IMG/VR virus record: IMGVR_UViG_3300036964_000424
Location: 36,290 to 100,289 of that record
Origin: a virus
Taxonomy: Duplodnaviria; Caudoviricetes
DNA length: 64,000 nucleotides
Reading direction: 5' to 3' (one strand)
Shown: piece by piece, positions 1,606 to 17,771 of the stretch
How the letters are laid out: each line of letters opens with the position of its first letter
Position numbering within the stretch: position 1 is the first letter of the stretch
The notes under the pieces: model-generated
The model's input: the letters and a program-made list of their open reading frames with translations, nothing else
The model's database searches: none
What the model was told of the DNA's origin: nothing
Program-made: the position numbers and the translations under genes

Positions 1606-2607
1606 ATGGCAGAAGTAATGGTTTTGAAAAAGGCACAGCGAAAGCAAGCTAAATTAAAATTAGGGATAAGCGCCCCTGCCGGCGGTGGCAAAACACTTGG
1701 GGCGTTATTAATTGCTTACGGATTGATGAAAGAAAAATATCCGCAATTAAAAGATGAAGATTTGTGGAATAAAATTGTAATTATAGATAGTGAGAATGGA
1801 TCGGGGGAACTTTATGTTGGGAGTGTTATTGATAATGTAAAAATTGGAACTTATAATGCCGTAACATTAACTCCACCTTTTGAAGCTGATAAGTACACTT
1901 CCGCTATTGAAATGTGTTATAATGCTGGGATGGAAGTTGCTATTATAGACAGCGTGACACATTTATGGTCTGGGTCAGGAGGCTTGCTTGAACAACAAAA
2001 CAGTATAGCTAAACGAACAGGGAACTCCTATACATCATGGCGAGATATAACCCCACAGCACAATCGCTTTGTAGAAGCAATGTTACAAACAGATATGCAT
2101 ATTATAGCAACTATGCGAAGCAAGGTAGATTATGTGCAGGAAAAAGATCCTAGTACGGGTAAAACCATTGTTCGCAAAGTAGGATTAAATCCTATTGCTA
2201 AAGAAGGCATGGATTATGAGTTTACTGTATTCTTGGAAATTGATGCGGAACATAACGCTTTCGGATCAAAAGATCGTACTGGAGTAGTAGACCAAAAATA
2301 TTTCAAAATTACGCCCAAAATTGGGGCAGAATTAATGAATTGGCTGGAAAGTGGTACAACAGAAAAGGAGACTGTAGTTGCTGAAGCAGAAGTAGTTTCT
2401 GCAGAAACTAAAAAAGAAAATGCAATAAAAGAGCTTCAACAAAAAGTAATTAATAGATGTGTAGAATTAGGAGGAAGCAAAAATACTGCATTGATGGCAA
2501 TTGTTAAAGAATACGAACCTTCTGGGAATACGAACAGAATTAAAGATGCTTCAAAACTTGAAGAATTGTTAGCTAAATTAAATACATTAGAAATAGAGGA
2601 TAAATAA
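1606..2607 (+). CDS. Sak4-like AAA ATPase / single-strand annealing recombinase
   Basis: Walker A APAGGGKT, IDSE, Walker B IIDSVTHLW, ATMRSK, GMDYEF, KDRT; adjacent to SSB. Confidence 0.85.
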   Translation: MAEVMVLKKAQRKQAKLKLGISAPAGGGKTLGALLIAYGLMKEKYPQLKDEDLWNKIVIIDSENGSGELYVGSVIDNVKIGTYNAVTLTPPFEADKYTSAIEMCYNAGMEVAIIDSVTHLWSGSGGLLEQQNSIAKRTGNSYTSWRDITPQHNRFVEAMLQTDMHIIATMRSKVDYVQEKDPSTGKTIVRKVGLNPIAKEGMDYEFTVFLEIDAEHNAFGSKDRTGVVDQKYFKITPKIGAELMNWLESGTTEKETVVAEAEVVSAETKKENAIKELQQKVINRCVELGGSKNTALMAIVKEYEPSGNTNRIKDASKLEELLAKLNTLEIEDK

Positions 2608-3087: not shown

Positions 3088-3948
3088 ATGAATAACTTTT
3101 TATATCAAGCATTACTATATTTAGATTTAGGGTGGTGGGTATTTCCTTGCAGGGAGAAGCCTGGAAAGCCATATATTGATAAACTTGGCAAGCTAAAAAT
3201 GAGTAAAGAAAAGAGCCCCTATGTTAAAAACGGCTTTAAAGATGCATCGAACGATCCTTATCAGATTAAAGAATGGTGGAATAGATGGGAAAATGCTTGT
3301 ATAGGAGTTTCATGTGAACATTCTGGATTATTTTTAATTGATATTGATGTTAAAAATGGGAGAAAAGGCATAGATAATTATATGCAATTAGGAATATCAG
3401 ATTCGGGTGCTTTGCATAGCAGAACACCTTCAAAAGGATTGCATATTCTATTTCAAGGCAGGGGTAAATCAAGCACAAATATTATTACAGGTATAGATAC
3501 AAGGGGCGATGGAGGCTATTTCATTGCACCTCCTTCTGAAATAATAGGTGGTATAGTCCCTGGGAAATATGTGGCATTAGATAATTGGGATCATAATCCA
3601 GAAAAAATTAATGATTACGATATTGAAAAATTAAACTTGGAACCTAAAAAGACTAGTGCTGGAAAGAAATCAATATTCCCCAAAAATATAAAAAACAATC
3701 AGGATGATATTCAAAAAGCTAAAAATGCTTTAGAAAATTTGCCAAGTTATATGGTAGATAATTATCAAGATTGGATTAATATAGGAATGAGTTTATATAG
3801 TTTAGGGTATGAAGGTATGAATCTTTGGAAAGAATGGAGCAAAAAGTCTTCCAAATATGAAGAAGGCATATGCGAAGAAAAATGGGAAACCTTTTCCCCC
3901 GATGAAATTACATTGGGATCATTGTTTTACTATTCAAAAGAAAATTAA
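3088..3948 (+). CDS. Bifunctional primase-polymerase (Prim-Pol/AEP) with PriCT-2 domain
   Basis: GWWVFPC, GFKDAS.D..QI.EWW, IDIDVKNG, TPSKGLH, DTRGDGGYFIAPPS; C-terminal YQDWINIGMSL..W.EWS..S.KY..KW.TF. Confidence 0.9.
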   Translation: MNNFLYQALLYLDLGWWVFPCREKPGKPYIDKLGKLKMSKEKSPYVKNGFKDASNDPYQIKEWWNRWENACIGVSCEHSGLFLIDIDVKNGRKGIDNYMQLGISDSGALHSRTPSKGLHILFQGRGKSSTNIITGIDTRGDGGYFIAPPSEIIGGIVPGKYVALDNWDHNPEKINDYDIEKLNLEPKKTSAGKKSIFPKNIKNNQDDIQKAKNALENLPSYMVDNYQDWINIGMSLYSLGYEGMNLWKEWSKKSSKYEEGICEEKWETFSPDEITLGSLFYYSKEN

Positions 3949-3962
3949 ATCTGGAGGGCATA

Positions 3963-5327
3963 TTGGGAAATAATCTGTATTCCTCAGATATGGAAGAAAG
4001 TGTTTTATGCTGTGTTTTAAATGACGGTAATTTATATAATATATTAGTAGATATTTGCAATGAGAAAGATTTTTGGTATCAGCCATATTCTTGGCTATGG
4101 GCTACTTTTCAAAGATTATATGAACGTAATTCGAATATTGATATTATTACTGTTCAGGATGAACTCCAGCGAGTAAGAAATTTCGAAAGCTTTTCTACAT
4201 TTGACGGGGAATATTCTGGATATGATGCACTATTATATTTAAAAAATAAGCCGAATGTAGTTTTGGATAATTATGAATCATATGGGAAGCAGGTAAAAGA
4301 CGACAGTAACAAAAGAAGAATCCAAGAAATTGTTAATAAAAGTTTAGGCTGGATTAATCAAGGCAATGATTCAAGCAGCATTTTAACAAATTTAGAACTT
4401 GAATTAGGAAAAATATCGGCCTTCTGTGGAACCAATATTAAATCTATTAAAAATATTAGTGATGCGGTTGACGAGGCTGTAGAAGAAACTACCCTTGCCA
4501 GCTTGTCTAAGGGTAAATTTATTGATACTGGAATCAAAGCACTGGATGAAATTACCGGAGGCTTGTTCCCAGGGCAATTAACTACTATTGCGGCAAGGCA
4601 GGGTTTAGGCAAAAGCTCTTTAGCTTTAAGTATTGCTATGAATGTCGCAATAAATAATGAAATCAAAAGAAAAGTTGGTATATTTACATTAGAAATGAGT
4701 AGCACTGAATATGTAAACAGAATGATATCTTCTTTAAGCGGCATTGATAGTTTGAGGCTTAAAAAAGGCATTATTTATAAAGATGAAAGAAGTAAATATG
4801 AAGAAGCTGTAAATAAAATAAAAGATTCAGGAAATATTGTAATAGATGATACGAGTAATATTACAATGTCTATGATCAGAAATAAACTACGCAAAATGAA
4901 AGAATGGGGGATAGAAGTAGCCGTTATTGATCAAATGGGGTTGATTGCTGACAGATTCCCGAATGAACAGGAACATGTTCGCGTAGACAGATTAAGCTAT
5001 TTACTGAAAAATTTAGCAAGAGAATTTGATATAAGCATAATTAATATCCAGCAAATGAACCGATCTATTGAAAGTATACAGCGCGTAAAATTTAAAGAGC
5101 CGCAGACTAGTGATTTAGCCCAAGCTGGGGAGAGTAGCCCCGATTTGATTATTATGATTACGCATGAAATGCAAAACAAAGTTATTTTAAAATCAAAACT
5201 ATGGATTGTAAAAAACAGAAATGGTGCTATGGGTAGTGTTGATGTAAAATTTGATGCTAAAAGAACGTTGTTCAGGGATTTGACGGAAAAAGAATTAGCG
5301 GAGCAAGCACCAGATTTTATGAATTAG
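3963..5327 (+). CDS. dnaB: Replicative DNA helicase, DnaB family
   Basis: N-terminal EESVL..domain, Walker A AARQGLGKS, FTLEMS, IDQMGLI, QMNR, KNRNG. Confidence 0.92.
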   Translation: MGNNLYSSDMEESVLCCVLNDGNLYNILVDICNEKDFWYQPYSWLWATFQRLYERNSNIDIITVQDELQRVRNFESFSTFDGEYSGYDALLYLKNKPNVVLDNYESYGKQVKDDSNKRRIQEIVNKSLGWINQGNDSSSILTNLELELGKISAFCGTNIKSIKNISDAVDEAVEETTLASLSKGKFIDTGIKALDEITGGLFPGQLTTIAARQGLGKSSLALSIAMNVAINNEIKRKVGIFTLEMSSTEYVNRMISSLSGIDSLRLKKGIIYKDERSKYEEAVNKIKDSGNIVIDDTSNITMSMIRNKLRKMKEWGIEVAVIDQMGLIADRFPNEQEHVRVDRLSYLLKNLAREFDISIINIQQMNRSIESIQRVKFKEPQTSDLAQAGESSPDLIIMITHEMQNKVILKSKLWIVKNRNGAMGSVDVKFDAKRTLFRDLTEKELAEQAPDFMN

Positions 5328-5488: not shown

Positions 5489-6253
5489 ATGACATGGTCT
5501 TATAGTAGCGTAAACAGCTTCGCTACTTGTCCGCATATGTTTAAATTAACATATATTGATTCTGTAAATAGAAAGAATAACTTCTTTTCAGAATATGGCT
5601 TATTTTCCCACAAGATATTAGAAAATTATTTTAAAGATAAATTAGATATTATGGAGTTAGCTTTATATTATGAAAATGACTATGCTAAAAACATTATAAT
5701 GCCTCCTCCGCCTTATCCTGCAGGGATGAGTGAAAAATATTATAAACAAGGATTAGAATTTTTTCTAAATTTTGATTTTAACAAAGAAAAATATAATATT
5801 ATTTATATAGAGAAAAAGATTCAAGCTGTTTTTAATGATATAAAATTGGTAGCAAAGCCAGATTTGATCTTAAAAGAAAAAGATACTGGTAAAAATATTT
5901 TGATTGATTACAAAACTTCGGTACCTTTTATAAAAGAAACTCCCAATATGAAAAAAATAGATGAATATAAAAAACAGCTTTATCTTTATTCATATTTTAC
6001 AAACGAACAGCTACATGCAAATATAGATATAATTAAATTGTGGTTTCTTAGAGTAAACAAGTGGTATGAATTTGCTTATAACGAAGATGAAGCGGCAGAC
6101 GTTGTGAATTGGTTTTATAGCACGATATTAGATATAAAATCGGAAGAAGTATTTCCTCCTTGTGATATAAAAAAGAATGCTTATTTTTGCGATAATCTTT
6201 GTTCTGTAAAAGAGCATTGCAAATATCAGCATAACAAGGCACATCAAAAATAG
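5489..6253 (+). CDS. PD-(D/E)xK nuclease (Cas4/RecB-like exonuclease with Cys cluster)
   Basis: WSYSS..CP, G..SH, KPDL, IDYKT, QLYLY, C-terminal C..C.....C; may start upstream at ATT 5456/5459. Confidence 0.88.
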   Translation: MTWSYSSVNSFATCPHMFKLTYIDSVNRKNNFFSEYGLFSHKILENYFKDKLDIMELALYYENDYAKNIIMPPPPYPAGMSEKYYKQGLEFFLNFDFNKEKYNIIYIEKKIQAVFNDIKLVAKPDLILKEKDTGKNILIDYKTSVPFIKETPNMKKIDEYKKQLYLYSYFTNEQLHANIDIIKLWFLRVNKWYEFAYNEDEAADVVNWFYSTILDIKSEEVFPPCDIKKNAYFCDNLCSVKEHCKYQHNKAHQK

Positions 6254-6533: not shown

Positions 6534-6619
6534 TATCTACATGAAATCAATAACTGAATTGCAACTGCTTTTAGATAATCATATTTATTATAATCATGAT
6601 TATCATAGCACGAGGAAAA

Positions 6620-9271
6620 ATGAATAAAAAAAATTATGCATTCGACATAGAAGTATTCCCTAACTTTTTTTGTGCTACCTTTATGAATGTAGAAGATAGT
6701 GCAGAATATAGTAGTTTTATAATTGCGTGGAAATTGGGAATTGATCAATCGGAAGAAATGAAAGCCTTTGTAGATAGCAATGTATCATCTATGATAGGTT
6801 ATAATAATTTGTATTATGATTATCCTATTCTCGAATCTATATATAATTATAACGGGAAAGATTTAAACAGCGATATATTTAAATTATCTAAAAAAATTAT
6901 AGATGGGGATAGAGGAGAGAATTTCGGGCATAGAAAAAATTATCTTTGGGAACAAATTGACCTAATGAAGATGATGGCTTTCGATAAATTAGGTGTTAGT
7001 TTGAAACAATGCGCAATCAATTTGAAATGGGGAAAAATTCAAGATTTGCCATTAGCCTACGATCATAATGTTAGTAAAGACGAAATAGAAATTATTATAA
7101 AGTACAATATAAATGATGTTTTGATTACACTAGAATTATATAAATCCTTAGCCGAAGAGATTAATTTGCGTAAGGAATTAAGCGAATTATATAAAGTAAA
7201 TTTACTTAGCGCAAGTGATAGTAAAATTGCCAATATATTATTAGAAAAATTTTATACTGAAGATAGCGGGCTAAATATTACCGAACTGAGAAAGCTTAGA
7301 ACGCCTAGAGAATTTCTATGGCTAAAAAATTGTATGTGCGACGGTATTGCGTTTAAAACTAAAAAGCTAAGAGAACTTAAATTAGAATTAGGTAATACCC
7401 TAGTAGTAAAAGAGAATAATTTTGCATATAATAAAACGATAAGCTTTGGATCTAATTATTATGATTTGGGTATTGGGGGATTGCATAGTGTGGATTCACC
7501 TGGGATTTTTGAATCAGATGAAAATTATAGAATAATAGATATAGATTGCCAAAGCTTTTATCCTTCGATCATGATCCAAAATAAAATTAAGCCGGAACAC
7601 TTGGGTGATAATTTTATTAATATTTTGAGAGACATTACAAAACAACGGATTGAAGCAAAAAAAGAAAATAATACAGTAAAGGCGGCAGGTTTAAAAATTG
7701 TTATCAATTCTATTTTTGGAAAATTAGGAAGTGATACCTTTTGGCTATATGATCCCAAGGCGTTTCTTACCGTTACAGTATCGGGGCAATTATTTCTTTT
7801 GATGCTAATTGAAGATTTGGTTCTCCATGGAATAAAAGTTATATCTGCTAATACCGATGGCATTGTTAGCAAAATACCTGCAGATAAATACGAAACCTTT
7901 AAAAAAGTATGCATGGAGTGGGAAACAAAAACAGGATTCGTTTTAGAGGAAACTGAATATAGCAAATATATCAGAAGCGATGTAAATAATTATATTGTTA
8001 AAAAAATAGATGGGCATATAAAAGAAAAAGGTAGATATATGACATCTTTGAATCTAAAAAAAGGATATAAATATCCGGTAGTATCAAAAGCCATGTTTGA
8101 ATATTTTATTAATGATGTACCAATAGAAAATACAATAAAAAACAATACGGATATATTAGATTTTTGCCTGTCTGAAAAAACAGGAAAGGATTTTATTCTA
8201 GAATTTAGAGACGACAATCAAACAATCCCACTTCAAAAAACTAATAGATTCTATATTAGTAACACCGGCGGAACGTTAGTAAAAATTAATACTAATACTG
8301 GGAAAGAAATCGGATTAGCGGTAGGGAAATTATGCAGAATATTAAATGACTATGATCATACTTTAGATTTTTCTGAATATGATGTAAATTATAATTATTA
8401 TATAGAAGAAGCATTAAAATATATAGAATCTATAGAAAATTCCAAAGAAGAAGAATTTTTTGAAATCGAGGAAGAAAGTTCGGAAGAAGAAAGGGATATA
8501 TTTGAAAATATAGAAACAAAAAATATTAATATAGTTCCCCCTAAATTTAGATATTCAACCTATGCTTATAAATTTGATAAAAATAAAAATTGTATTTGGC
8601 GGGGGATTGGATCGCTGAAGTATGTTACTAAAAAAGTGGCAGAAGATTTAGAATCCCTTTCTAGCAAAACATATATAGACTTTATAGATTTTTTGATTGA
8701 TGTAGAGGAAAACACTACTATTAACTCCAAGCAAATGGAAATATTGATAATGCTAGATTTCTTTTCTGAATTTGGGAAAAATGGTAAACTTATGAAAATA
8801 TATGATTTATTTAAAAAGGGAGATAACAAATATACTAAAAGTCTAAAACAAGAAACTAAGAACAACCGCATAGAAGCAATTCGTAAAATTTCCGAAAGCC
8901 TCCCTAATAACCGAGTTTCAGTTATAGACCAAATAAATTTTGATAAATCTTTATTTGGGCAAATACAAACGGTTTATCCTATACAAAAAAATTATGTTTT
9001 AATAACAAGGATTGACACAACTTATTCTCCAAAAGCCACTATATATTGCTTCAATAACGGGAATTATGCTAACTTAAAAGTTAGAAAAGCAATTTTCATG
9101 GGGAAGAAATTTAAGAAAGATGATATTCTGTTTTGTAAAAAGTTTGCCAAAGAGCCTTCTGTAATAAAAGTAAATAATGAATGGGTTAAAACTGGAGGAT
9201 CGGAATTTTGGTTAGTGGATTATGATAAAGTATCCTATGAAGAATTTGACAATATAATATCGAATCTGTAG
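6620..9271 (+). CDS. Family B DNA polymerase (3'-5' exo + pol) with a C-terminal DnaE-like HhH/OB extension
   Basis: Exo motifs FDIE, GYNN..YD, YNINDV; pol motifs DIDCQSFYPS, KIVINSIFGK, SANTDG; after an acidic linker IVPPKFRYS..IWRGIGSLKYV..F.DFL resembles a phage DnaE C-terminus; start chosen from GAGG RBS (track start 6596). Confidence 0.88.
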   Translation: MNKKNYAFDIEVFPNFFCATFMNVEDSAEYSSFIIAWKLGIDQSEEMKAFVDSNVSSMIGYNNLYYDYPILESIYNYNGKDLNSDIFKLSKKIIDGDRGENFGHRKNYLWEQIDLMKMMAFDKLGVSLKQCAINLKWGKIQDLPLAYDHNVSKDEIEIIIKYNINDVLITLELYKSLAEEINLRKELSELYKVNLLSASDSKIANILLEKFYTEDSGLNITELRKLRTPREFLWLKNCMCDGIAFKTKKLRELKLELGNTLVVKENNFAYNKTISFGSNYYDLGIGGLHSVDSPGIFESDENYRIIDIDCQSFYPSIMIQNKIKPEHLGDNFINILRDITKQRIEAKKENNTVKAAGLKIVINSIFGKLGSDTFWLYDPKAFLTVTVSGQLFLLMLIEDLVLHGIKVISANTDGIVSKIPADKYETFKKVCMEWETKTGFVLEETEYSKYIRSDVNNYIVKKIDGHIKEKGRYMTSLNLKKGYKYPVVSKAMFEYFINDVPIENTIKNNTDILDFCLSEKTGKDFILEFRDDNQTIPLQKTNRFYISNTGGTLVKINTNTGKEIGLAVGKLCRILNDYDHTLDFSEYDVNYNYYIEEALKYIESIENSKEEEFFEIEEESSEEERDIFENIETKNINIVPPKFRYSTYAYKFDKNKNCIWRGIGSLKYVTKKVAEDLESLSSKTYIDFIDFLIDVEENTTINSKQMEILIMLDFFSEFGKNGKLMKIYDLFKKGDNKYTKSLKQETKNNRIEAIRKISESLPNNRVSVIDQINFDKSLFGQIQTVYPIQKNYVLITRIDTTYSPKATIYCFNNGNYANLKVRKAIFMGKKFKKDDILFCKKFAKEPSVIKVNNEWVKTGGSEFWLVDYDKVSYEEFDNIISNL

Positions 9272-9295
9272 TATAATAATATAGGAAAAATAATA

Positions 9296-10423
9296 ATGCA
9301 AAAAGGAAATTTAATAAAAGTACCAGTGACAGGGCAAGTTATTGAAGAAGAAGAAGTTGAAGCTTTGAAAAAGGTAGCGGAGAACAAGCAATTTGCTCCT
9401 GCAGAAAAAGTAAAAGAATTTGAGCATAATTTTGCTAGATATGTGGGAAAAAAGCATGGAATATTTGTAAACAGCGGTTCTTCTGCTAATTTATTAGCCG
9501 TAACCGCCTATAAAAAATATACTAATGAATCCTTAGTAACATTGCCCGCACTGATGTTTCCTACTACGCTCAATCCTTATTTGCAAAACAATTATGATGT
9601 TGAATTGATAGACGTTGATATAGAAACCCTACAAGCACAACTTCCCCAAAAGCATGGCGTACATACTTTAGGAAATTATTCTGATATATCTGGAATAGAA
9701 GATTCTTGCGATGCATTATTCCCTGGAAATTATAAAGGCATAATCCAGACATTTTCTTTTTTTCCTGCACATTTTCTGAGCTGTGGAGAAGGTGGAATGG
9801 TTACGACAGACAATGTTGATTTATACAAGCTAATGGTGTCTTTTTCACACTGGGGAAAAGATTGTTTTTGCCCATTAGGATATGATAATGCTTGCGGGAA
9901 AAGATTTGATCAGCAATTTGGCGAAATGCCATATGGATATGATCATAAATACATTTATAGTAATATCGGATATAATTTAGCTGGAACTGAAATGGGAGCG
10001 GCTATAGGGATAGAACAACTAAAAAAACTACCAAGATTTTTAGAAATTAGAAAGCACAACTTTACAAAATTATATCAAGGATTAAATAAATATTCAGATG
10101 TTTTTATTCTGCCTAAAACAGTTTTACCTGCCACTGCTTGGTTTTCGTTTCCTATAACTATTAGAAAAGAAACGAATATACAAAGAAGGGACTTAGTACA
10201 ATTTTTAGATTCTAAAGGGGTTGGATCCCGTCCTATTATGGGTGGTAATTTGAAAAGGCAACCAGCATATTCAAATATTCCATTTATAGTAAAAGAAAGC
10301 CTTCATAATTCTGATTTGATAACTGAAAATTCCTTTTATGTAGGAATATGGCATGGGCTAAAAGATGAACAAATAGAATATACTATTTCGGTTATTTCGG
10401 AGTTTATAGAAAATCGTGCATAA
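9296..10423 (+). CDS. RfbH/AscC-like PMP-dependent NDP-4-keto-6-deoxyhexose 3-dehydrase (DegT/DnrJ family)
   Basis: VNSGSSANL, EDSCDA, SFFPAHFLSCGEGG (His where aminotransferases have Lys), DCFC..DNACGKRF Cys cluster, GYDHKY..GYNL. Confidence 0.88.
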   Translation: MQKGNLIKVPVTGQVIEEEEVEALKKVAENKQFAPAEKVKEFEHNFARYVGKKHGIFVNSGSSANLLAVTAYKKYTNESLVTLPALMFPTTLNPYLQNNYDVELIDVDIETLQAQLPQKHGVHTLGNYSDISGIEDSCDALFPGNYKGIIQTFSFFPAHFLSCGEGGMVTTDNVDLYKLMVSFSHWGKDCFCPLGYDNACGKRFDQQFGEMPYGYDHKYIYSNIGYNLAGTEMGAAIGIEQLKKLPRFLEIRKHNFTKLYQGLNKYSDVFILPKTVLPATAWFSFPITIRKETNIQRRDLVQFLDSKGVGSRPIMGGNLKRQPAYSNIPFIVKESLHNSDLITENSFYVGIWHGLKDEQIEYTISVISEFIENRA

Positions 10424-11111
10424 CATAGTTCTTGGATGTGGCCTTTTAGGCAAAGAAATTGTGAAACAAACCGGATGGGATTGTCTTTCTAGGAAAGAAA
10501 CGCCAGATTTTGATTTCCGCTATTTAAGAACTTACATCAAATATCTTTATGCATACGACATAATTATTAATTGTGTGGCAAATACTAATACTTATAGTGA
10601 TGATAAAATAGCTATGTTAGAAACTAATTTTAAGCCAGTTTGTAAGCTTACAGATTGGTGCGAAAAAAATGGTAAGAAGCTAGTACATATTTCTACAGAT
10701 TACGTATATGCAGGCAGTATTCATCCTTCAAAAGAATCAGATGTTCCAGTTCATGCTCGAACATGGTATGCATATTCTAAATTATTAGCTGATGGATATA
10801 TAGAAAGTTTTTCTACTAATTATTTGATTATTAGAACATCCTTCAAAAGATACCCTTTTCCTTATGAAAAAGCTATAGTGATGCAAAAAGGGAATTTTGA
10901 TTATGTGCCAAGAATAGCTGAAAAAATTATAAATCTTATAAATAAAAATTCCCACGGAATAGTTAATGTGGGGCATATTCCATCTTGGAACATGTATGAA
11001 ATGGCTAAAGAAACAAAGCCAGATATAAAAGTTACAACTGAACTTATAAATAAAAATATGCCAAGAAATATCACAATGGATTTATCCAAAATGAAATCAT
11101 TATTACAATAA
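10416..11111 (+). CDS. RmlD-like NAD(P)-dependent sugar-nucleotide 4-reductase
   Basis: GCGLLG Rossmann motif, INCVA, HISTDYVY, YAYSK (YxxxK). Confidence 0.85.
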   Translation: MHNIVLGCGLLGKEIVKQTGWDCLSRKETPDFDFRYLRTYIKYLYAYDIIINCVANTNTYSDDKIAMLETNFKPVCKLTDWCEKNGKKLVHISTDYVYAGSIHPSKESDVPVHARTWYAYSKLLADGYIESFSTNYLIIRTSFKRYPFPYEKAIVMQKGNFDYVPRIAEKIINLINKNSHGIVNVGHIPSWNMYEMAKETKPDIKVTTELINKNMPRNITMDLSKMKSLLQ

Positions 11112-11127
11112 GAAAAAGGAACTAATA

Positions 11128-11832
11128 ATGCCTAAAATTTCTGTACTTATTCCCGCCTATATAAATAATAAAAAAGAATTAAAATTATTAATCTATAATT
11201 TAAATCAAATTAAATTACAAAAAATGAAAGATTTTGAAGTAATTATATCGGATGATTCGCCATCTAATATTGTAGAAAAATATGTAAAAAATATAAAAGA
11301 CATAGATATTAAATACATAAAAAATAGTGGTAAAAAAGGTATTGGAGGAAATACAAATAATGCCATGCTTCATGCAAGCGGCGATTTATTTCATATATTA
11401 TATCAAGATGATTACTTCTTTAGTGAAAATTCTCTAGATACAATAGTTGAAAATTTTGACTATAATGCTAAATGGATGGTTTCAGCTTATTTCCATACAA
11501 AAAATAGAAATGAGTTTTTCAATTTGCATATACCATCTTGGAATAATGAAATATATATTAGAAATACTATTGGAACGGCATCCTGCCTTACTATTTTAAA
11601 TAAAGATATTATTCTTTTTGATGAAAATTTGAAATGGTTTGTAGATTGCGAATATTATTATAGGCTTTACAAAAAGTGGGGATTGCCTAAAATATTAGAA
11701 GATATTATATTCATACAGTATTTATGGGAAGGGCAAGCTACTAATACTATTACCGAAGATATTGTAAAATATGAAATTGAATATATGAGAATTATGCACG
11801 GAGATCAAACCTATGGTTCTGAAATTATCTGA
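11128..11832 (+). CDS. Glycosyltransferase family 2
   Basis: KISVLIPAY, EVIISDDS, N.G...N.N.AM..A.G, LYQDD, FDENL.WFVDCEYY. Confidence 0.88.
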   Translation: MPKISVLIPAYINNKKELKLLIYNLNQIKLQKMKDFEVIISDDSPSNIVEKYVKNIKDIDIKYIKNSGKKGIGGNTNNAMLHASGDLFHILYQDDYFFSENSLDTIVENFDYNAKWMVSAYFHTKNRNEFFNLHIPSWNNEIYIRNTIGTASCLTILNKDIILFDENLKWFVDCEYYYRLYKKWGLPKILEDIIFIQYLWEGQATNTITEDIVKYEIEYMRIMHGDQTYGSEII

Positions 11833-12460
11833 TATAACGCTAGTCGGAGTAGATTGTACTGATAGAATAATGTCTACTATTGAAGCCATGAACATATCTT
11901 CGCAGGGAATCATATACGGAGAAACAATCTTGTTTTCTCATAAAAAGCCTGCGCTTATGCCAAGCTATTTTAAATTTATAAAGATCCCTAAGATAGAAAA
12001 TATAGATGCATATAGTTATTTCATGTTTAAAGAATTGGGCAATTATATTAATACTACCCATTGCCTTACAGTTCATGATCACGGGTATGTTTTGAATAAA
12101 AATGTATTTGATTATAGCTGGTTGCAATATGATTGGATTGGGGCACCTTGGCCTGTTATAGAAGGCGCATATATAGCGAATAACGGGGAAATAGTCAGGG
12201 TAGGCAATGGCGGGTTTTCTTTACGCAGTTCACGAATTTTAAAATTGCCAATAGAAAAAGGATGGTATTTGCGAGAAGAACAAGGTTGGAAAAATGAAGA
12301 TGGTAATTTTTGTTGCTACTGGCGCAAAGAAATGTTAGAAAATGGGATAAAATATGCACCTATAGAAGTTGCGGCAAAGTTTTCATATGAAAATGATGTG
12401 CCTGAAAATATGCATATAAAAGAGTTCTTTGGGTTTCATAGAAACTATCCAATACGATAA
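11813..12460 (+). CDS. DUF5672-like GT-A fold glycosyltransferase-like protein
   Basis: HCLTVHDHGYV, YDWIGAPW, VGNGGFSLRS, NEDG, A.KFSYE, FGFH. Confidence 0.75.
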   Translation: MVLKLSDITLVGVDCTDRIMSTIEAMNISSQGIIYGETILFSHKKPALMPSYFKFIKIPKIENIDAYSYFMFKELGNYINTTHCLTVHDHGYVLNKNVFDYSWLQYDWIGAPWPVIEGAYIANNGEIVRVGNGGFSLRSSRILKLPIEKGWYLREEQGWKNEDGNFCCYWRKEMLENGIKYAPIEVAAKFSYENDVPENMHIKEFFGFHRNYPIR

Positions 12461-12516
12461 ATATGATTATAATTAGCATTATACTTAGTTAGAAATGAAA
12501 TTGGGAATAATTATCA

Positions 12517-12840
12517 ATGAATGATTTAGAAATATTAGCACGAAAATATGGAACAGATAAAAGAACGAATGATCCAGGCCAAAATATTTATCATGGATAT
12601 ACAGATATATATTATGAAATGTTCAAAGGTATGCGAAATGAAAAATTAAATATTGTGGAAATTGGGGTGCAGAACGGGTATAGCACTTTTATGTTTCGTG
12701 ATTTTTTCCCTAATGCAATGATTTATGGTATCGATACATTCGGGGACATTGGCTGTAAAACAAAAGTTGAAGATATTGAGGGTGATAGAATCAAGATTTT
12801 AGTTGCAGATCAATCAGATGATTTATCTGATATTATATGA
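12517..12840 (+). pseudogene. C-terminally truncated class I SAM-dependent (sugar O-)methyltransferase
   Basis: YGTDK..HGY...Y, VEIGVQNGYS, IYGID, ADQS, then stops before the expected DIIIDDGSH half; followed directly by an unrelated DNA methylase. Confidence 0.7.
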
Positions 12841-12870
12841 ATTGTGCTTAAAAATGGAGGTGAGTTGAAA

Positions 12871-13725
12871 TTGTTACCAAAACATATCGAAAATGTTATA
12901 GTTCCACCAATTAAATGTCAAGGTATAAAAACAAAACTGGTTAATTTTATCGCAAATAATATTGTATGGGATGGCGAAGGTCGTTGGATTGAACCATTTT
13001 TAGGCTCTGGAGTTGTGCTTTTTAATATACAGCCAGAAAGGGCTCTTATTAGTGATAAGAATGAACACATAATTAATTTTTATAGAGGCATTCAATCTGG
13101 ATATATAAACCCAATATCAGCCAGAGAATTTTTAGAATACCATGGTGAAAGGCTCAATAATATTGGTGAGGATTATTATTATCAAATGCGAGATGAATTT
13201 AACGAAACAAAAAATCCGTTGTATTTTTTATTTTTAAGTCGAGCCTGTTTTAATGGTGTTATGAGGTTTAGTAAAAAGGGAAAATTTAATGTGCCATTTT
13301 GTAAAAAGCCTGATAGATTTAGACCCGCTTATGTTACAAAAATTGTTAACCAAATTGAAAAAGTATCGAGAGTAATGTTAGGTCGGGACTGGGTATTTCA
13401 AGCCTGTGATTGGAGAGAAACAATACAGCAAGCGGCTGAAGATGATTTTATTTATATAGACCCCCCATACATAGGACGAAGCACTGGTTATATAGGCGAC
13501 TGGGAACAGAACGAAGCGAACGAATTAGCAGAATATGCAAGAACTTCTCCAGCAGGGTTTGCTCTTTCAATGTGGAAACAAAATAAATACAGGGTAAATA
13601 CACATATTGAAGAAGCATGGGGCGGGTTAGAAATGAGAGAATTTAATCATTTTTACCATGTAGGTTCAAGTGAAGATTTAAGAAATACAATGATTGAAGC
13701 ATTAATTATTAAAGAAGGAATTTAA
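12871..13725 (+). CDS. DNA adenine methyltransferase, Dam/D12 alpha class, M.EcoRV-like
   Basis: VPPIKCQGIKTKLV, EPFLGSG, FNVPFCKKP.RF..AY.TKI.NQ, DPPYIGR, HFYHVG; start from GGAGGT RBS (track start 12844). Confidence 0.9.
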   Translation: MLPKHIENVIVPPIKCQGIKTKLVNFIANNIVWDGEGRWIEPFLGSGVVLFNIQPERALISDKNEHIINFYRGIQSGYINPISAREFLEYHGERLNNIGEDYYYQMRDEFNETKNPLYFLFLSRACFNGVMRFSKKGKFNVPFCKKPDRFRPAYVTKIVNQIEKVSRVMLGRDWVFQACDWRETIQQAAEDDFIYIDPPYIGRSTGYIGDWEQNEANELAEYARTSPAGFALSMWKQNKYRVNTHIEEAWGGLEMREFNHFYHVGSSEDLRNTMIEALIIKEGI

Positions 13726-13728
13726 AGC

Positions 13729-14589
13729 ATGATTAATGTAGACTTAACGGGTAATGTTTCGGATCATATAATAAGATACTGTATTTGCAGAAGTGTTGCT
13801 GAAAAAAATAATTATAAATTGGGGATAAATCCCATTGCAAGCCATGATTATTATGGCGGAAAAGAACAAATGTATTTCTTTTCTGGCATAGATTATGGTG
13901 AATCCATCAATACACCTTATGGTGTTTTGCCTAAAGGAATTGCTAATGTTTGGGAAGAAAAGAGAGAACGGCATGCTGGGTATAATTTTCACCCCTTCCA
14001 GCCTGATATTTTTGATGTTCCTGATAACACAAAATTAGTTATTTACTGTGGACAAGATTCTAACTATTTAATTAAAGAAAAAGTAAAAGAATGGTTGCAA
14101 ATTAAAGAAGAATATATAAAAGACGCTGAAAGATTACTGGATGAAGCGGGAATAGAACTAAATGAAAATATTTGCATTATAAACGCTAGGGGTGGTGAAT
14201 ATAGAGGAGTTCCTTCATTATTTCTCCGGCACGAGTATTGGGAAAATGCCATACAACTAATGAAACAAAAAAATCCTGATATAAAATTTATTGTTGTAAC
14301 TGAAGATTTAGATTTTTACAAACATTATGAACCTTTTAGTGGCTTTCCGATTTATCATTTTGGAACTAACACCGATTATTATATTCTTAATCGTGCTAAA
14401 AATCTAATTGTTTCTAACTCCGGATTTGGAATTTTTCCTGTATGGCTGAACGAAAATAATCCCTATGCAATAGCACCTTATCTGTGGGCTAATCATAATT
14501 TTGGAAAGGAAGAAGAATGGGCAAATTCAAATATGCGAAGTTGGGGGTGTTTCACTTTTATTGACAGAAAGGGGGATATAGTATTATAA
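13729..14589 (+). CDS. GT11-like alpha-1,2-(deoxyhexosyl/fucosyl)transferase
   Basis: N-terminal L.GNVSDH (GxGNQ-like), INARGGEY (HxRRGDY-like), YW..AI..M, FIVVTED, LIVSNSGF..W. Confidence 0.75.
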   Translation: MINVDLTGNVSDHIIRYCICRSVAEKNNYKLGINPIASHDYYGGKEQMYFFSGIDYGESINTPYGVLPKGIANVWEEKRERHAGYNFHPFQPDIFDVPDNTKLVIYCGQDSNYLIKEKVKEWLQIKEEYIKDAERLLDEAGIELNENICIINARGGEYRGVPSLFLRHEYWENAIQLMKQKNPDIKFIVVTEDLDFYKHYEPFSGFPIYHFGTNTDYYILNRAKNLIVSNSGFGIFPVWLNENNPYAIAPYLWANHNFGKEEEWANSNMRSWGCFTFIDRKGDIVL

Positions 14590-14650
14590 TAAAGCATTAT
14601 AAAGCATTCCATTTATGGAGTGAAATAATAACTTAAATTAAAGGAAACTT

Positions 14651-15487
14651 ATGAGAAAAATTTATGATGTACAAACAATATTTAATGAAATGGATTTATG
14701 CTATTTAAGATTTTCCATCTTAGATCCATACGTAGATTATTTTGTAGTAAATGAAGCGACTACAACCTTTTCGGGTAAGCCTAAAAAATTATATTTTCAA
14801 GAAAATATAGATCGATTCAAGAAGTTTGAGCACAAAATTATTTATAATATGTTTGATGAAAATAAACCAGAATGGACACAATGGGATAGAGATTGTATCC
14901 ATAAAAATGCTGCAATGAAAGCACTAGAAAAAAGCAATCTCGATGATGGCGATATTGTTTTTTATTCTGATGCAGATGAAATTTGGAATCCAAAAGCTGT
15001 TGATTTTTCTAATTTTAAAGAAGATATACTTTATATTTTATACCAAAAAACATTTTATTATTATATTAATACAGAATGGTATGACATAAATAATCCTTAT
15101 AAAGATATTTGGAGAGGATCCAAATATAGTTCATATGGTTTGTTAAAACAGCATTCTTTTGATACTTTTAGAGATTGGGGTTCTTATTTTCATCGGGATA
15201 ATCAATATAAAAAAGAATATATTAATAATGGCGGATGGCATTTTTCTTTCTTGGGCGGTGCCAATAATATTAAATTAAAAATAGATAGCTACGGGCATCA
15301 AGAATTTAATTGCCCACCTTTTTTAGACAATATTCAAAATAATATTGATAATCTGAAGGATCCCTTTTTTAGACCATATTATAAAATAAGGGTTATTGAC
15401 CTTGATCCTAACATTTATCCGGCATATTTAATGGATCATCTAGATGAATATGATAAATATATTTATAGGGAAAACAGAAATGAATAA
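14651..15487 (+). CDS. GT17-like N-acetylglucosaminyltransferase
   Basis: IYD...FNE.DL..RF..L..YVDYFVV.E...TFSG.PK, SDADEI, GGWHFSFLG, K..SY.HQE. Confidence 0.85.
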   Translation: MRKIYDVQTIFNEMDLCYLRFSILDPYVDYFVVNEATTTFSGKPKKLYFQENIDRFKKFEHKIIYNMFDENKPEWTQWDRDCIHKNAAMKALEKSNLDDGDIVFYSDADEIWNPKAVDFSNFKEDILYILYQKTFYYYINTEWYDINNPYKDIWRGSKYSSYGLLKQHSFDTFRDWGSYFHRDNQYKKEYINNGGWHFSFLGGANNIKLKIDSYGHQEFNCPPFLDNIQNNIDNLKDPFFRPYYKIRVIDLDPNIYPAYLMDHLDEYDKYIYRENRNE

Positions 15488-16217
15488 TTTTAAAATTCTA
15501 TATCGCATTTCTAGTCAGGGGAATCCGCTAGGTCGCACGGAACTATCAAACACAGAATTGGCAGGTATTACTCGTCAAGATTGTTTTAATAATTTAGTAA
15601 AAGTATTTGGAACTGTTAACTTAATTGTAATTGCGGATAATGCAAACGATGATGTAATTTCTTTTTTGAAATCTAAAGGTATCGATGATATTGAAAGAAC
15701 TAATCTAGGGAATACTAATAGTTTTCGTTATATCTTGCATAAAGCCATTTCCGAATTTGACGATAACGATATTATTTATTTTTTAGAAGATGATTATGTT
15801 CATAATTATGGTGCCGAAAAGATTATAAAAGAGGGAATAGAAATTTCAGATTATCTAACGCTTTATGACAATAAGGACAAATATATCGATACGGATAAAG
15901 GAGGAGACAATCCTTTTGTTTATGGCGGAGGCGAAGATACAAAAGTAATGATTACTAATTCTTGCCATTGGAAAATAACAAACGCATTCACGATGTCTTT
16001 TGCATCTAAAGTAAAAACATTAAAAGAAGATTATGATACAATTATAAAATATTGTCCTCTAAATGCGCCGCATCCAATGGATTTCTTATTATGCCGCGAG
16101 TTGGCTACGCAAAAAAATCGCAAGCTAATTAGCCCTATACCAGGCTATTCTTCCCATATAGGATTAAATATGAGCCCGTTTGTACCATGGGTAAAATTGC
16201 TAAAAGGAGAATTATGA
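15480..16217 (+). CDS. GT-A fold glycosyltransferase (GT2-like)
   Basis: VIADN, LGN..SF, IYFLEDDYVH, SPIPGYSSH; within the GT cluster (track start 15444). Confidence 0.7.
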   Translation: MNNFKILYRISSQGNPLGRTELSNTELAGITRQDCFNNLVKVFGTVNLIVIADNANDDVISFLKSKGIDDIERTNLGNTNSFRYILHKAISEFDDNDIIYFLEDDYVHNYGAEKIIKEGIEISDYLTLYDNKDKYIDTDKGGDNPFVYGGGEDTKVMITNSCHWKITNAFTMSFASKVKTLKEDYDTIIKYCPLNAPHPMDFLLCRELATQKNRKLISPIPGYSSHIGLNMSPFVPWVKLLKGEL

Positions 16218-16288
16218 TTAAAGATATAGCGCAAGATGTACTAATAGTGGAACATAATAAATATATTTATAAGGGGAATAAAAAATGA
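16214..16288 (+). pseudogene. 24-aa mini-ORF, probable deletion remnant
   Basis: AGGAGA RBS, MIKDIAQDVLIVEHNKYIYKGNKK*; overlaps both neighbours by ATGA; its 3' end matches the 3' end of the GT17 gene. Confidence 0.4.
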
Positions 16289-16950
16289 GCAAATTTGAAG
16301 AAATTTTTCCGTTAATTTATGTTATTAATTTGGATTCTCGACCTGATAGGCTCAATGCTAGCATAGAAGAATTCAAAAAAATTGGGCTAACCTCCATCAA
16401 TAGAATGCCAGGGCAAGTATATACCTATGCCCCCGATGCTTATACCAATGGCGCTATTGGTTGTATGCTTTCCCACAAATTTTGTTTAGAAGAAGCATTG
16501 CGGCAAAAGAAAAACGTTTTCATATTTGAAGATGATATAGAATTTTTGCCATATGATAATTTAAATGAAATTATAGATCAATGCTGTGAGGAATTAGAAA
16601 GTATAGACTGGAGCCTAGTATATTTTTCTGGCAACTTACTTAGACCTGCATTTCAAAAAAGTAATCGCTTAGCTAAATTAACTCACGCCCAATCTACAGT
16701 TGCATATGGGGTCAAATATGAATTTATTGAAAAACTATTATCATATTTCCCTACAACTACTTTTACGGAGCCTATAGATATGACTTATGCTAATAGAGTA
16801 ATCCCAGAAAATAACTGCTATATAACTATTCCTATGATTGCAATTCAAAGAAAAGGCTATTCGGATATTGAATGCAAAGAAGTTGATTATAGCCAATATT
16901 TACAAAAGCGATATTGGGAGAATTTGGTATATACCGAAGGGATATTATGA
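16285..16950 (+). CDS. Glycosyltransferase family 25
   Basis: YVINLDSRPDR, GAIGCMLSH, IFEDD, STVAY, PID. Confidence 0.88.
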   Translation: MSKFEEIFPLIYVINLDSRPDRLNASIEEFKKIGLTSINRMPGQVYTYAPDAYTNGAIGCMLSHKFCLEEALRQKKNVFIFEDDIEFLPYDNLNEIIDQCCEELESIDWSLVYFSGNLLRPAFQKSNRLAKLTHAQSTVAYGVKYEFIEKLLSYFPTTTFTEPIDMTYANRVIPENNCYITIPMIAIQRKGYSDIECKEVDYSQYLQKRYWENLVYTEGIL

Positions 16951-17771
16951 AAGATTTCATTACGGTTATATTTTCACGAGACAGGGCATCTCAATGTGAT
17001 TTGCTTTTAAAGTCTATAAATGCATGCACTAAAGAATACATGAATATTCATGTTATTTATACTTGTGATACCGATAGGCATTGGAGATCATACGAGAAAC
17101 TTAAAAATAGGCACGGGGAAGCCAATTTTCACATTGAAACAACCTTTAAATATGATTTAATTTCCCTTATTCGATATTATAAATATGTTCTCTTTATGGT
17201 TGATGACAATATTTGTGTATCTGATTTTAGCATAGAAAAGATTATAGATTTATTAGAAAAAAACAAGACTGCACTTGGGTTTAGTTTGCGGCTAGGAGCT
17301 AATTGCACAGAATGTTATACGCTGTCCTGCAAGCAAGAAATGCCGCCTTCTACCAAAATAGCTGATAATGTATTTATGTATAGCTGGTTTGGTGCGAATG
17401 CAGATTTCGGGTATCCGCTGGAATTATCAAGTTCAATTTATAAGGTATCGGATATTATACCGATATTAATGAACGAAAATTTCTTGAATCCGAATGAATT
17501 AGAATGGAAAATGCAATCTTATAATTATTGGTTTTCTACAAAAAAGCCGCACCTTTTGTTATACCAAACCAGTGCCTGCTTCTGCAATCCAATTAATAAA
17601 ATAAATATTAATAATAATCGAAGCGGGAATAATCCGGAATATTCAATAGAATCACTCTTGACAAAATACGAAAAAGGTGTTATCATTAAATATGATTTCA
17701 AAGGGTTTATTCCCAATGGATGTCATCAAGAAGTAGATATTGAATTTGGGCTTGAGAAAGGTGAAGAATGA
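16947..17771 (+). CDS. GT-A fold glycosyltransferase-like protein
   Basis: IFSRDRASQ.DLLL.S, LFMVDD, FSLRLG.N, FGYPLE, NPN.LE (track start 16914). Confidence 0.65.
   Translation: MKDFITVIFSRDRASQCDLLLKSINACTKEYMNIHVIYTCDTDRHWRSYEKLKNRHGEANFHIETTFKYDLISLIRYYKYVLFMVDDNICVSDFSIEKIIDLLEKNKTALGFSLRLGANCTECYTLSCKQEMPPSTKIADNVFMYSWFGANADFGYPLELSSSIYKVSDIIPILMNENFLNPNELEWKMQSYNYWFSTKKPHLLLYQTSACFCNPINKININNNRSGNNPEYSIESLLTKYEKGVIIKYDFKGFIPNGCHQEVDIEFGLEKGEE

Follow-up and report, generated by a model that had tools for sequence, protein, structure and literature searches.

The replicative polymerase of a wastewater phage related to SPbeta is a genuine cross-family chimera, in which a single open reading frame joins a family B (PolB) polymerase core, a linker and a C-terminal helix-hairpin-helix (HhH)/OB module of the DnaE type. 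Sequence and fold comparisons of both halves confirm the fusion of two polymerase families that a sequence-only reading of the 64,000-nucleotide window, the whole stretch analyzed here, had proposed. What is observed directly is the fused architecture, the homology of its two halves, the intactness of the catalytic motifs, how widely the fusion occurs and the kinship of the phage. The frame at 6596..9271 (+) encodes 891 aa without interruption, and ATG 6620 is likely the true start, since a GAGGA element lies at 6611-6615 and the nearest homologues are also 883 aa long; the gene boundaries 6620-9271 given by that reading agree with this. The acidic linker, which it had set at about 8441-8520, is present and lies at about 8426-8512. 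The features of the gene are as follows.

6611..6615, + strand: GAGGA ribosome-binding site, 4 nt before ATG 6620, read directly
6620..9271, + strand: chimeric polymerase gene, 883 aa from ATG 6620 (the longest open reading frame starts at 6596)
6620..8425, + strand: family B DNA polymerase core with 3'-5' exonuclease (Exo I-III) and polymerase (motifs A, B, C), from phrog_1252, PDB matches, AF2 fold and motifs
8426..8512, + strand: acidic linker, weakly conserved, ~30 aa (about aa 611-639 of P0001)
8513..8992, + strand: HhH domain, corresponding to the Pol III alpha 'beta-binding domain', plus a helical connector, from HHH_6 and fold
8525..8782, + strand: Pfam HHH_6 match, within the HhH domain
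8993..9268, + strand: OB-fold domain, corresponding to that of Pol III alpha, from AF2 strands and structural alignment; the protein ends here

The N-terminal part (aa 9-619 of P0001) matches the PHROGs family phrog_1252, annotated 'DNA polymerase', with an E-value of 2e-156. Across 26 homologues, the exonuclease residues (Exo I D17/E19, Exo II N70/D75, Exo III Y170/D174) and the polymerase residues (motif A D315/D317/S320/Y322/P323, motif B K367/N371/G375, motif C T420/D421) are constant. The core carries all of the exonuclease and polymerase signatures by which family B is recognized (Exo I DxE, Exo II Nx2-3(F/Y)D, Exo III Yx3D; A Dx2SLYPS, B Kx3NSxYG, C DTD), with motif A reading DIDCQSFYPS, motif B KIVINSIFGKLG and motif C SANTDGI. 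Motifs A, B and C align with those of KOD, 9N, Tgo, Pfu and E. coli Pol II, and Exo III aligns to archaeal PolB. Sequence and profile matches of the core in the PDB are almost all PolB. The full-length AF2 model (pLDDT 88.6; 71-84 in the linker) has 353 Foldseek matches in the PDB at E <= 0.001, the best 50 of which are all family B polymerases, led by an archaeal PolB (E 2.5e-16, more than 700 columns); the exonuclease, palm, fingers and thumb of the PolB fold are all recognizable. The Pfam PolB models (DNA_pol_B, DNA_pol_B_exo1, DNA_pol_B_2) do not match the protein at E <= 1 because this clade has diverged too far for them, a miss outweighed by the motif, profile and fold evidence. By sequence, the core is a predicted active, proofreading family B polymerase of a clade shared with crAss-like and many proteobacterial phages. 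The complete PolB with Exo I-III and motifs A-C expected from the letters is borne out by the phrog_1252 match and the invariant motifs, and a PolB is also what the PDB profile and Foldseek matches return for this part.

The tail (8513-9268; ~250 aa) scores 31.3 bits against Pfam HHH_6, above the gathering score of 25.6, and aligns with positions 841-1067 of the 1190 in phrog_405. In Geobacillus virus E3, the DnaE-type polymerase gp96 (1014 aa) shares 41% identity with the tail over its own last 240 aa (E 9e-48), and the phiCD211 DnaE shares 33%; the DnaE counterparts of the tail always sit at the extreme C-terminus of proteins of 1014-1023 aa. The AlphaFold model of the tail reaches a pLDDT of 95.9, with the strands of the OB domain at tail residues 161-240, and all eight of its Foldseek matches in the PDB at E <= 0.001 are Pol III alpha. 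Over both domains, VIA-align Z scores are 10.9 for Taq alpha, 10.6 for M. tuberculosis and 9.8 for E. coli alpha. The HhH domain aligns to E. coli alpha 806-927, to M. tuberculosis DnaE1 833-933 (rmsd 2.3 A, 22% identity) and to Taq alpha from 863, and its fold matches 5lew, 5m1s and 2hnh with rmsd 2.3-3.2 A over 93-112 residues at 20-24% identity. The model continues through the OB domains of 2hpi (to 1125), 7pu7 (to 1099) and 5fku (to 1077), and its OB domain also resembles SSB/RPA/PriB OB folds (Z 6-7). A profile of the tail finds only DnaE proteins in the PDB; the single tail sequence has no phmmer match there, and the solved DnaE structures are reached by profile and fold only.

The tail thus contains the C-terminal (HhH)2 'beta-binding' domain of DnaE followed, as in DnaE, by an OB domain, and the assignment of the last ~250 aa to DnaE HhH/OB holds on the HHH_6 match, the identity to E3 and the Pol III alpha folds, with Foldseek and the tail profile leading to the same proteins. 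The PHP domain and the Pol-beta-like catalytic core (PF02811, PF07733, PF17657) are absent from both the chimeric protein and the 100-kb record, so the chimera is not a family C polymerase. The Tau-binding C-terminal domain (compare E. coli alpha 1078-1160) is also absent, as the protein ends ~10 aa past the OB domain; the phage DnaE relatives likewise end right after the OB domain without it.

The phage itself has cultured relatives that use DnaE. Its terminase is 34-37% identical to those of SPbeta, phi3T, TR-TP1, PMBT24 and phiCD211 (~90% of length, E to 1e-101), and its portal is 25-31% identical to those of the same five and 22-31% identical across the supergroup portals compared. These shared families assign the phage, by sequence, to the SPbeta/phiCD211/E3 supergroup of large siphoviruses (clade 4 of PMC11348598). 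The DnaE catalytic core (PF07733) occurs in all five cultured relatives examined (SPBc2, TR-TP1, PMBT24, E3 and phiCD211), upholding the premise that SPbeta-type phages replicate with a DnaE-type polymerase. The family C (or PolA) replicase typical of the supergroup was not found in the record, where the replicase is a PolB with a PolC tail; the record contains no PF07733 and a single HHH_6, and, being ~73% complete, could have a DnaE in its missing part. Upstream of the polymerase lies a replication cassette that travels with the PolB clade.

1606..2607, + strand: AAA_24 ATPase, first gene of the cassette
3088..3948, + strand: AEP primase (Prim-Pol plus PriCT-2)
3963..5327, + strand: DnaB-type replicative helicase, with no match to the helicases of the E3 and phiCD211 loci
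5489..6253, + strand: PD-(D/E)XK nuclease, immediately upstream of the polymerase

The order AAA_24, Prim-Pol, DnaB, PD-(D/E)XK, PolB is kept in two related loci, L009 and L010, whose AAA_24 copies upstream of PolB are 63-65% identical and whose terminases are 42% and 64% identical to that of the source phage. Neither the helicase nor the nuclease detectably matches anything in the polymerase regions of three DnaE phages (E3, phiCD211 and TR-TP1). Together with the AEP Prim-Pol primase, this indicates that the wider replisome swap suspected from the primase is real. The companion claim, that PolB displaced dnaE in situ in this phage, is not borne out: the fusion is old and family-wide, and besides the tail the DnaE-phage polymerase regions share only a methylase fragment and a weak ThyX-like match.

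The same architecture, which the sequence-only reading had proposed to look for in other phages, is found in many uncultured ones. Fusions with the full tail occur in at least 77 protein clusters at 39-98% identity, and tails within the family are only ~35% identical. The event is thus not peculiar to the source phage but shared by a family that is large and has diverged deeply. IMG/VR adds two further full fusions (L006, L007) among the 80 loci listed, along with L010, an OB-only form of 752 aa; a search for related loci with the single tail returned one near-identical fragment only. Other full-length fusions sit on contigs of 110-140 kb. In the scan of genome contigs, every full fusion lies on a MAG contig assigned to a Woesearchaeota, Patescibacteria, Holosporales or TM6 bin, and a 98% identical 1.5-kb fragment lies in a Eubacteriaceae bin; for phage contigs such binning is unreliable, and it is not taken to indicate a host.

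In the tail tree, which like the head tree is unrooted and has no cellular DnaE outgroup, 34 of the 35 DnaE tails group together as a clade, and the opposite side of that branch can be made up of the PolB tails. The exception, the true DnaE P0122, falls among the PolB tails in a polytomy, which means that a second tail exchange between polymerases may have occurred. One origin of the PolB tails is not rejected by the AU test (p 0.357; 52 representative rows of 111, LG+G4), and the head (PolB) and tail trees have their main split in common. Nested within the tailed clade are forms with no tail (620-640 aa) and others that have only its OB domain (about 752 aa), indicating that the tail is dispensable in some lineages, and one PolB relative, P0064, has a different C-terminal OB domain. 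On these sequence comparisons, the fusion appears old, and the PolB tails fit a single origin.

The best explanation, and a probable one, is that this replicative polymerase is a PolB carrying a tail captured from a DnaE of the SPbeta/phiCD211/E3 group; both the direction and the single origin of the capture are inferred. The module would derive from the DnaE-type polymerases of these large Firmicute siphoviruses. In the ancestor of a large uncultured lineage, a PolB cassette (AAA_24, Prim-Pol, DnaB, PD-(D/E)XK nuclease and PolB) would have replaced the DnaE-based one, with the DnaE tail alone retained in frame behind PolB. By analogy with Pol III alpha, the tail likely binds both duplex and single-stranded DNA: the HhH domain would grip the freshly synthesized duplex by its backbone, and the OB domain would touch the single-stranded template. 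These added contacts could give the PolB a processivity and a coupling to the fork not available to its tail-less relatives. A beta-type sliding clamp, which the source phage encodes, may be a further binding partner of the tail.

Several other explanations bear on this picture. The source is a metagenome-assembled viral contig, a setting in which two adjacent genes might be merged at the junction by a chimeric contig, an annotation error or a sequencing error, but this has a negligible probability here and is refuted by bridging contigs and independently assembled homologues. Contigs of three independent DNA runs from three studies cover 7900-9084 or 7900-9300 with 0-4 differences and no indel, and a contig of one RNA library also bridges the polymerase-tail junction unbroken; the continuity across 8400-8560 that the earlier reading wanted checked is therefore present. 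A 98% identical protein and ~80 more distant ones of the same length and architecture come from JGI, ENA, Logan and NCBI assemblies. A biological alternative, judged unlikely, is independent domain shuffling, in which PolB gained its HhH-OB module by fusion with a free-standing or split tail gene, or by repeated horizontal transfer, and dnaE was never displaced in place. The PHROGs family phrog_11119 (299 positions) spans the tail alone, and an HNH endonuclease gene interrupts the dnaE of Thomasclavelia phage TR-TP1, leaving it in two parts; however, most of the short tail-only proteins in the libraries are fragments cut off at contig ends, with the tail always C-terminal, and the TR-TP1 split point lies away from the tail boundary. 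Shuffling would also accommodate the placement of P0122, the tail as the sole clear link to the DnaE-phage polymerase regions, and other C-terminal additions on PolB relatives such as that of P0064, yet one origin of the PolB tails withstands the AU test, and both trees have their main split in common.

A further question is what the tail contacts. It is doubtful that the tail is mainly a sliding-clamp adaptor, with PolB riding a DnaN-type clamp of host or phage in a hybrid replisome. This reading draws on the matching domain of Pol III alpha (E. coli 806-927), which contacts the clamp, and on two of the fold matches, 5fku and 5m1s, which are alpha-clamp complexes. A DnaN-like protein of 364 aa (PF00712, E 1.3e-10), in which all three clamp domains can be recognized, is also encoded in the source record, at L005:751-1845, and no DnaN was found in any of five DnaE-bearing relatives. 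Against it, a QL[SD]LF-type or QxxLF-like clamp motif is not conserved at the equivalent loop of either the PolB tails or the phage DnaE tails, and no QL[SD]LF-type motif is conserved at the C-terminus of the PolB tails. DnaN was likewise not found in G001 (129.7 kb, 91% complete, PolB plus OB only) or in the MAG of L087 (full fusion), both with a related PolB, nor in G002 or G006, although this is weak evidence since some of these four records are incomplete. With no DnaN found in G001, the L087 MAG and all five DnaE-bearing relatives, the clamp link is not general. A broader version, in which the DnaE tail acts as a compatibility adaptor that plugs a foreign PolB into a bacterial-type replisome through the DnaN clamp and possibly other old DnaE partners, is speculative and rather improbable. 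If true, archaeo-eukaryotic-type parts (PolB, AEP primase) and bacterial-type parts (DnaN, DnaB, DnaE tail) would together form a natural hybrid replisome.

In phage genomes, the replicative polymerase families A, B and C are regarded as separate units that can be exchanged for one another, whereas here a part of the old enzyme persists within the new one. It follows that the C-terminal module of DnaE, itself non-catalytic, can function behind an unrelated catalytic core, or is at least maintained there by selection throughout a deep radiation. No description of a PolB-DnaE chimera was found in the literature searched, including through HHH_6/PF14579, which suggests that, as far as that literature goes, it is undescribed; INPHARED holds no phage record covering at least 80% of the query. 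For polymerase engineers, the family offers an evolution-tested PolB with built-in HhH and OB domains, plus natural tail-less and OB-only controls. Engineered phi29 polymerase has reportedly been given topoisomerase V HhH motifs at its C-terminus, raising DNA binding; it is said to be a laboratory construct with no OB domain and has no evolutionary link to the chimera.

Among natural enzymes, the nearest to the tail are the DnaE-type polymerases of SPbeta-like, phiCD211-like, Tsamsa-like and Geobacillus E3 phages (for example E3 gp96, phiCD211 CEK40467 and SPbeta YorL), whose last 240-250 aa are homologous to it at 28-41% identity, with the same HhH plus OB fold and the same end right after the OB domain. 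These enzymes have a PHP domain, a Pol-beta-like palm and fingers (PF02811, PF07733, PF17657), while the chimera has a PolB core instead. The nearest to the core are the phrog_1252 PolBs of crAss-like phages and of Acinetobacter, Achromobacter and Hafnia siphophages, which share the same motifs and 30-34% identity over aa 1-608 but, unlike the 883-aa chimera, end at about 600-640 aa. Yutin et al. 2024 (PMC11348598) describe in situ polymerase swapping in Caudoviricetes, in which the polymerase is replaced along with helicase, primase and nuclease genes, and PolC is inferred to be ancestral in clade 4, which includes Spbetavirus. That clade is the same phage assemblage as the chimera's, and its published swaps are whole-gene, from PolC to PolA; the paper describes neither a PolB swap nor a retained PolC fragment, and the words 'fusion', 'fused' and 'C-terminal' are absent from its text. 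The chimera widens this picture from PolC-to-PolA to PolC-to-PolB. A parallel in evolutionary logic is the scenario, summarized in Kazlauskas et al. 2020 (PMC7544198), in which eukaryotic PolB catalytic subunits kept the C-terminal domain of archaeal PolD DP2: there too, the catalytic part of an unrelated replicase gives way to a PolB polymerization module while its old C-terminal domain stays. The donor in that case is PolD and not PolC, the retained domain is a zinc-finger CTD and not HhH/OB, and the setting is cellular and not viral. The phage polymerase thus provides a testable natural case of the 'new catalytic core, old C-terminal module' scenario proposed for the origin of eukaryotic PolBs from PolD.

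The chimeric polymerase occupies a single uninterrupted frame on the + strand, 6596..9271, whose 891-aa translation (P0001) provides the residue numbers used here. The true gene is most likely 6620-9271, exactly the extent proposed by the sequence-only reading, because a GAGGA ribosome-binding site at 6611-6615 precedes ATG 6620, the resulting 883-aa product has the length of the two nearest homologues, and P0001 residues 1-8, ahead of this ATG, are disordered in the AlphaFold model.

The N-terminal 610 aa form a DNA polymerase of family B (PolB). PHROGs family 1252 ('DNA polymerase') matches residues 9-619 at E 2e-156, archaeal PolB and E. coli Pol II account for nearly all significant PDB phmmer matches (E <= 0.1), and a 26-sequence profile returns family B polymerases in 23 of 23 PDB matches; these PDB alignments cover Exo III and motifs A, B and C. 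The exonuclease and polymerase motif residues are invariant among 26 homologues (41-77% identity to P0001). The full-length AlphaFold model (pLDDT 88.6, pTM 0.79) has 353 PDB matches at E <= 0.001, the best 50 listed being all family B polymerases, and its top fold match is an archaeal PolB (E 2.5e-16, >700 columns). Profile, invariant motifs and fold searches agree on the complete PolB, exonuclease motifs included, that had been read from the sequence. No Pfam PolB model detects the core, which reflects the divergence of this PolB clade from those models. The nearest cores in cultured phages (crAss-like, Acinetobacter, Hafnia and Achromobacter phages) share 30-34% identity; every one of these matches runs out near residue 608, and 80% coverage of the query is reached by none of the phage-collection records.

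A DnaE-type polymerase tail makes up the C-terminal 250 aa. Residues 644-729 score above the gathering cut-off of Pfam HHH_6 (PF14579), which models the HhH domain of Pol III alpha, and the match to phrog_405, a 1190-position polymerase family, is restricted to positions 841-1067. Tail tblastn against phages retrieved 78 records, nearly all from phages of Firmicutes (Bacillus, Lactococcus, Clostridioides, Clostridium, Geobacillus and Thomasclavelia), and nearly all annotated records name the matched gene DNA polymerase III alpha. The best match is Geobacillus virus E3 gp96 (41% identity, E 9e-48); this match and that in phiCD211 lie at the extreme C-terminus of 1014- and 1023-aa proteins, respectively. 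The tail was also modeled alone (31 homologues; pLDDT 95.9, pTM 0.88), and all eight Foldseek matches at E <= 0.001 are Pol III alpha (M. tuberculosis DnaE1, Thermus aquaticus and E. coli). Z scores in an independent all-against-all search of structures were 10.9 for Taq 863-1125, 10.6 for M. tuberculosis 833-1099 and 9.8 for E. coli 806-1077, the next unrelated proteins being generic OB folds at Z ~7. Only DnaE proteins match the tail profile in the PDB, and the fusion point coincides with the beginning of the 'gI.vlpPdvN.S' strand, the first of the beta-binding domain, directly after the fingers domain. The tail is therefore an (HhH)2 'beta-binding' domain followed by an OB domain, so that the fold and profile checks return DnaE HhH/OB for the last 250 aa and PolB for the core, as predicted. 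The tau-binding end of E. coli alpha is missing from the tail and equally from phage DnaE relatives.

In Pol III alpha, the HhH domain grips the product duplex by its backbone, and single-stranded DNA is bound by the OB domain. By analogy with these contacts, the tail would most likely give the PolB core extra DNA contacts and processivity. Tethering to a sliding clamp is a more doubtful role: the equivalent domain of Pol III alpha does contact the beta clamp, but the tails share no conserved canonical clamp-binding motif. The phage also encodes a DnaN-like clamp 24 kb upstream, found in none of the five DnaE-bearing relatives tested; yet DnaN was not found in two other records with this PolB, namely G001, with PolB and OB only, and the MAG of locus L087, with the full fusion. 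This 364-aa clamp (G000:C1:18692-19786 in the full record, equal to L005:751-1845) lies ~17.6 kb ahead of the window start and matches PF00712 at E 1.3e-10, with the central and C-terminal clamp domains weakly detected. Short metagenome contigs are the only source of close homologues of this clamp (61-92% identity).

The fusion is neither an artefact nor a singleton. Positions 7900-9300 are present at at least 93% of sampled words in 14 DNA runs, drawn from a dozen independent metagenome studies (wastewater, activated sludge, biogas fermenters); two additional runs may be the source samples. Contigs from three of those studies cross the junction, differing at 0-4 positions and showing no indel, which upholds the assembly at this point. 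A metatranscriptome-library contig spans 8140-8661, marking presence in an RNA library, not proof of transcription. Among the best 120 relatives in a 5.8-billion-protein collection, the tail is detectable in 81 and full in 77, so the same architecture recurs elsewhere. The tailed relatives (39-98% identity, mostly with 97-99% of the query covered) stem from assemblies of JGI, ENA, Logan and NCBI, on contigs up to 140 kb, and none has a functional name. An exhaustive tail search of 1.84 billion cluster representatives yielded 732 proteins at E <= 0.001, with the tail C-terminal in nearly every case among the matches listed.

The phage or near-identical strains appear in wastewater, sludge and biogas metagenomes from studies of 2016-2025 and in two metatranscriptome libraries (runs X1-X16). 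At window 9055-9223, a second 130-nt contig variant differs by nine substitutions towards the end of the OB domain; seen in two independent runs, one of activated sludge and one of a biogas fermenter, it represents strain-level variation. Full-length fusions also occur on contigs binned as archaeal, Patescibacteria, Holosporales and TM6 MAGs (L087, L088, L089 and L091), probably misbinned phage contigs; L087 is the 93-kb contig BPGB01000006.1, in a Candidatus Woesearchaeota bin.

A maximum-likelihood tree of 112 tails places 34 of 35 DnaE tails in one clade (SH-aLRT 95), opposite the PolB tails. P0122, a true DnaE with PHP, catalytic and fingers domains, falls in an unresolved polytomy next to the window's group, and an AU test on 52 representative rows does not reject a tree joining all PolB tails (delta lnL 5.2, p 0.357). 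Head and tail trees share their main split, so heads and tails diverged together. Two groups without a full tail nest among tailed forms in the head tree, requiring at least four changes: one, of 620-640 aa, has nothing beyond the core, and the other, of ~752 aa, has a 140-aa extension equal to the OB part alone (44% identity to a PolB tail OB, E 2e-20). Read most simply, the tail was captured once, long ago, and was later lost in part or completely in some groups. The OB-only form, lacking HhH, is carried by L010 (129.7 kb) and L009 (81.8 kb), both IMG/VR contigs, and P0064 (1057 aa) ends in another kind of extension, which has a PF01336 OB fold; together with the tail-less form, these make a natural deletion series of the tail. 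The distribution makes the direction of transfer clear, from DnaE to PolB, because HhH-OB is general in DnaE-type polymerases and within PolB is found only in this subclade. Since both trees are unrooted and contain no cellular DnaE, we infer capture from a phage DnaE of this supergroup from best-hit identity and the shared virion module. Many phage DnaE-type polymerases with similar tails reach 1300-1550 aa and contain intein or Hint domains (PF14890, PF01079; P0126, P0128-P0130, P0134, P0136, P0138, P0139 and P0141-P0143).

The window covers the right-hand 64 kb of an IMG/VR contig of 100,289 bp with an estimated completeness of 73%, and the phage encodes a tape-measure protein (1466 aa), a portal and a terminase. 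The terminase shares 34-37% identity over ~90% of its length with TR-TP1 (Thomasclavelia), SPbeta (SPBc2), phi3T, Lysinibacillus LC76P1 and phiCD211-like Clostridioides phages, and the portal 22-31% with Enterocloster PMBT24, SPbeta-like staphylococcal, Lactococcus 949-like and Clostridioides phages. These are largely the phages whose DnaE tails match. The DnaE catalytic core (PF07733) is present in all five cultured relatives tested (SPBc2, TR-TP1, PMBT24, E3 and phiCD211; E 3e-26 to 5e-66), bearing out the premise that SPbeta-type phages use a DnaE-type polymerase. It is absent from the 100,289-bp record (~73% complete), which holds a single HHH_6 domain. The terminase of G001, the record containing L010, lies in two pieces ~1 kb apart (G001:C1:15663-18546; query residues 5-425 and 422-610), suggesting an intron or homing-endonuclease insertion.

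The genes upstream of the polymerase are, in order:
methylase
ThyX-like gene
AAA_24 ATPase
small unknown gene
AEP Prim-Pol with PriCT-2
DnaB helicase
PD-(D/E)XK nuclease

The order AAA_24, Prim-Pol, DnaB, nuclease, PolB is repeated in two related uncultured phages, L009 and L010 (terminase identity 42% and 64%). In a comparison with the E3, phiCD211 and TR-TP1 polymerase regions, only the tail, a methylase fragment and, weakly, the ThyX-like gene (E 2e-5) match; helicase, primase and nuclease have no match there. This pattern indicates that the entire replication cassette was exchanged, in line with the wider replisome swap suspected from the Prim-Pol. No synteny with these three regions is left on the flanks that could demonstrate the proposed in-situ displacement, an arrival of PolB within a resident dnaE. 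An HNH endonuclease gene interrupts the DnaE gene of TR-TP1, whose terminase is the closest among cultured phages, leaving ORFs of 551 and 496 aa (L172:3234-7859; PQ571309.1 69233-73858). This split, at a point different from the tail boundary, shows that mobile elements break and re-join these genes in this group. Directly 3' of the polymerase and co-oriented, window 9296-18595 holds sugar-modifying genes (DegT-type aminotransferase, RmlD/epimerase-like, GT2 and further ORFs), whose placement within the replication module prompts the question whether DNA or the virion is glycosylated.

Spbetavirus and its allies form 'clade 4' of Yutin et al. 2024 (PMC11348598), where PolC is inferred to be ancestral and PolA replaced it twice, in situ, in swaps that included helicase, primase and RecJ genes. 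Neither PolB nor a fusion is reported for that clade. Full-text literature searches turned up no account of a DnaE-type tail on a PolB, and HhH and OB domains go unmentioned in the extensive PolB survey by Kazlauskas et al. 2020 (PMC7544198). Polymerase swapping in phages is known; the new element is that a piece of the displaced, unrelated polymerase is kept as a fused domain. Conceptually, the phage chimera is identical to the eukaryotic scenario in which PolB supplanted the polymerising portion of PolD DP2 and the C-terminal domain stayed (Kazlauskas et al. 2020, PMC7544198).
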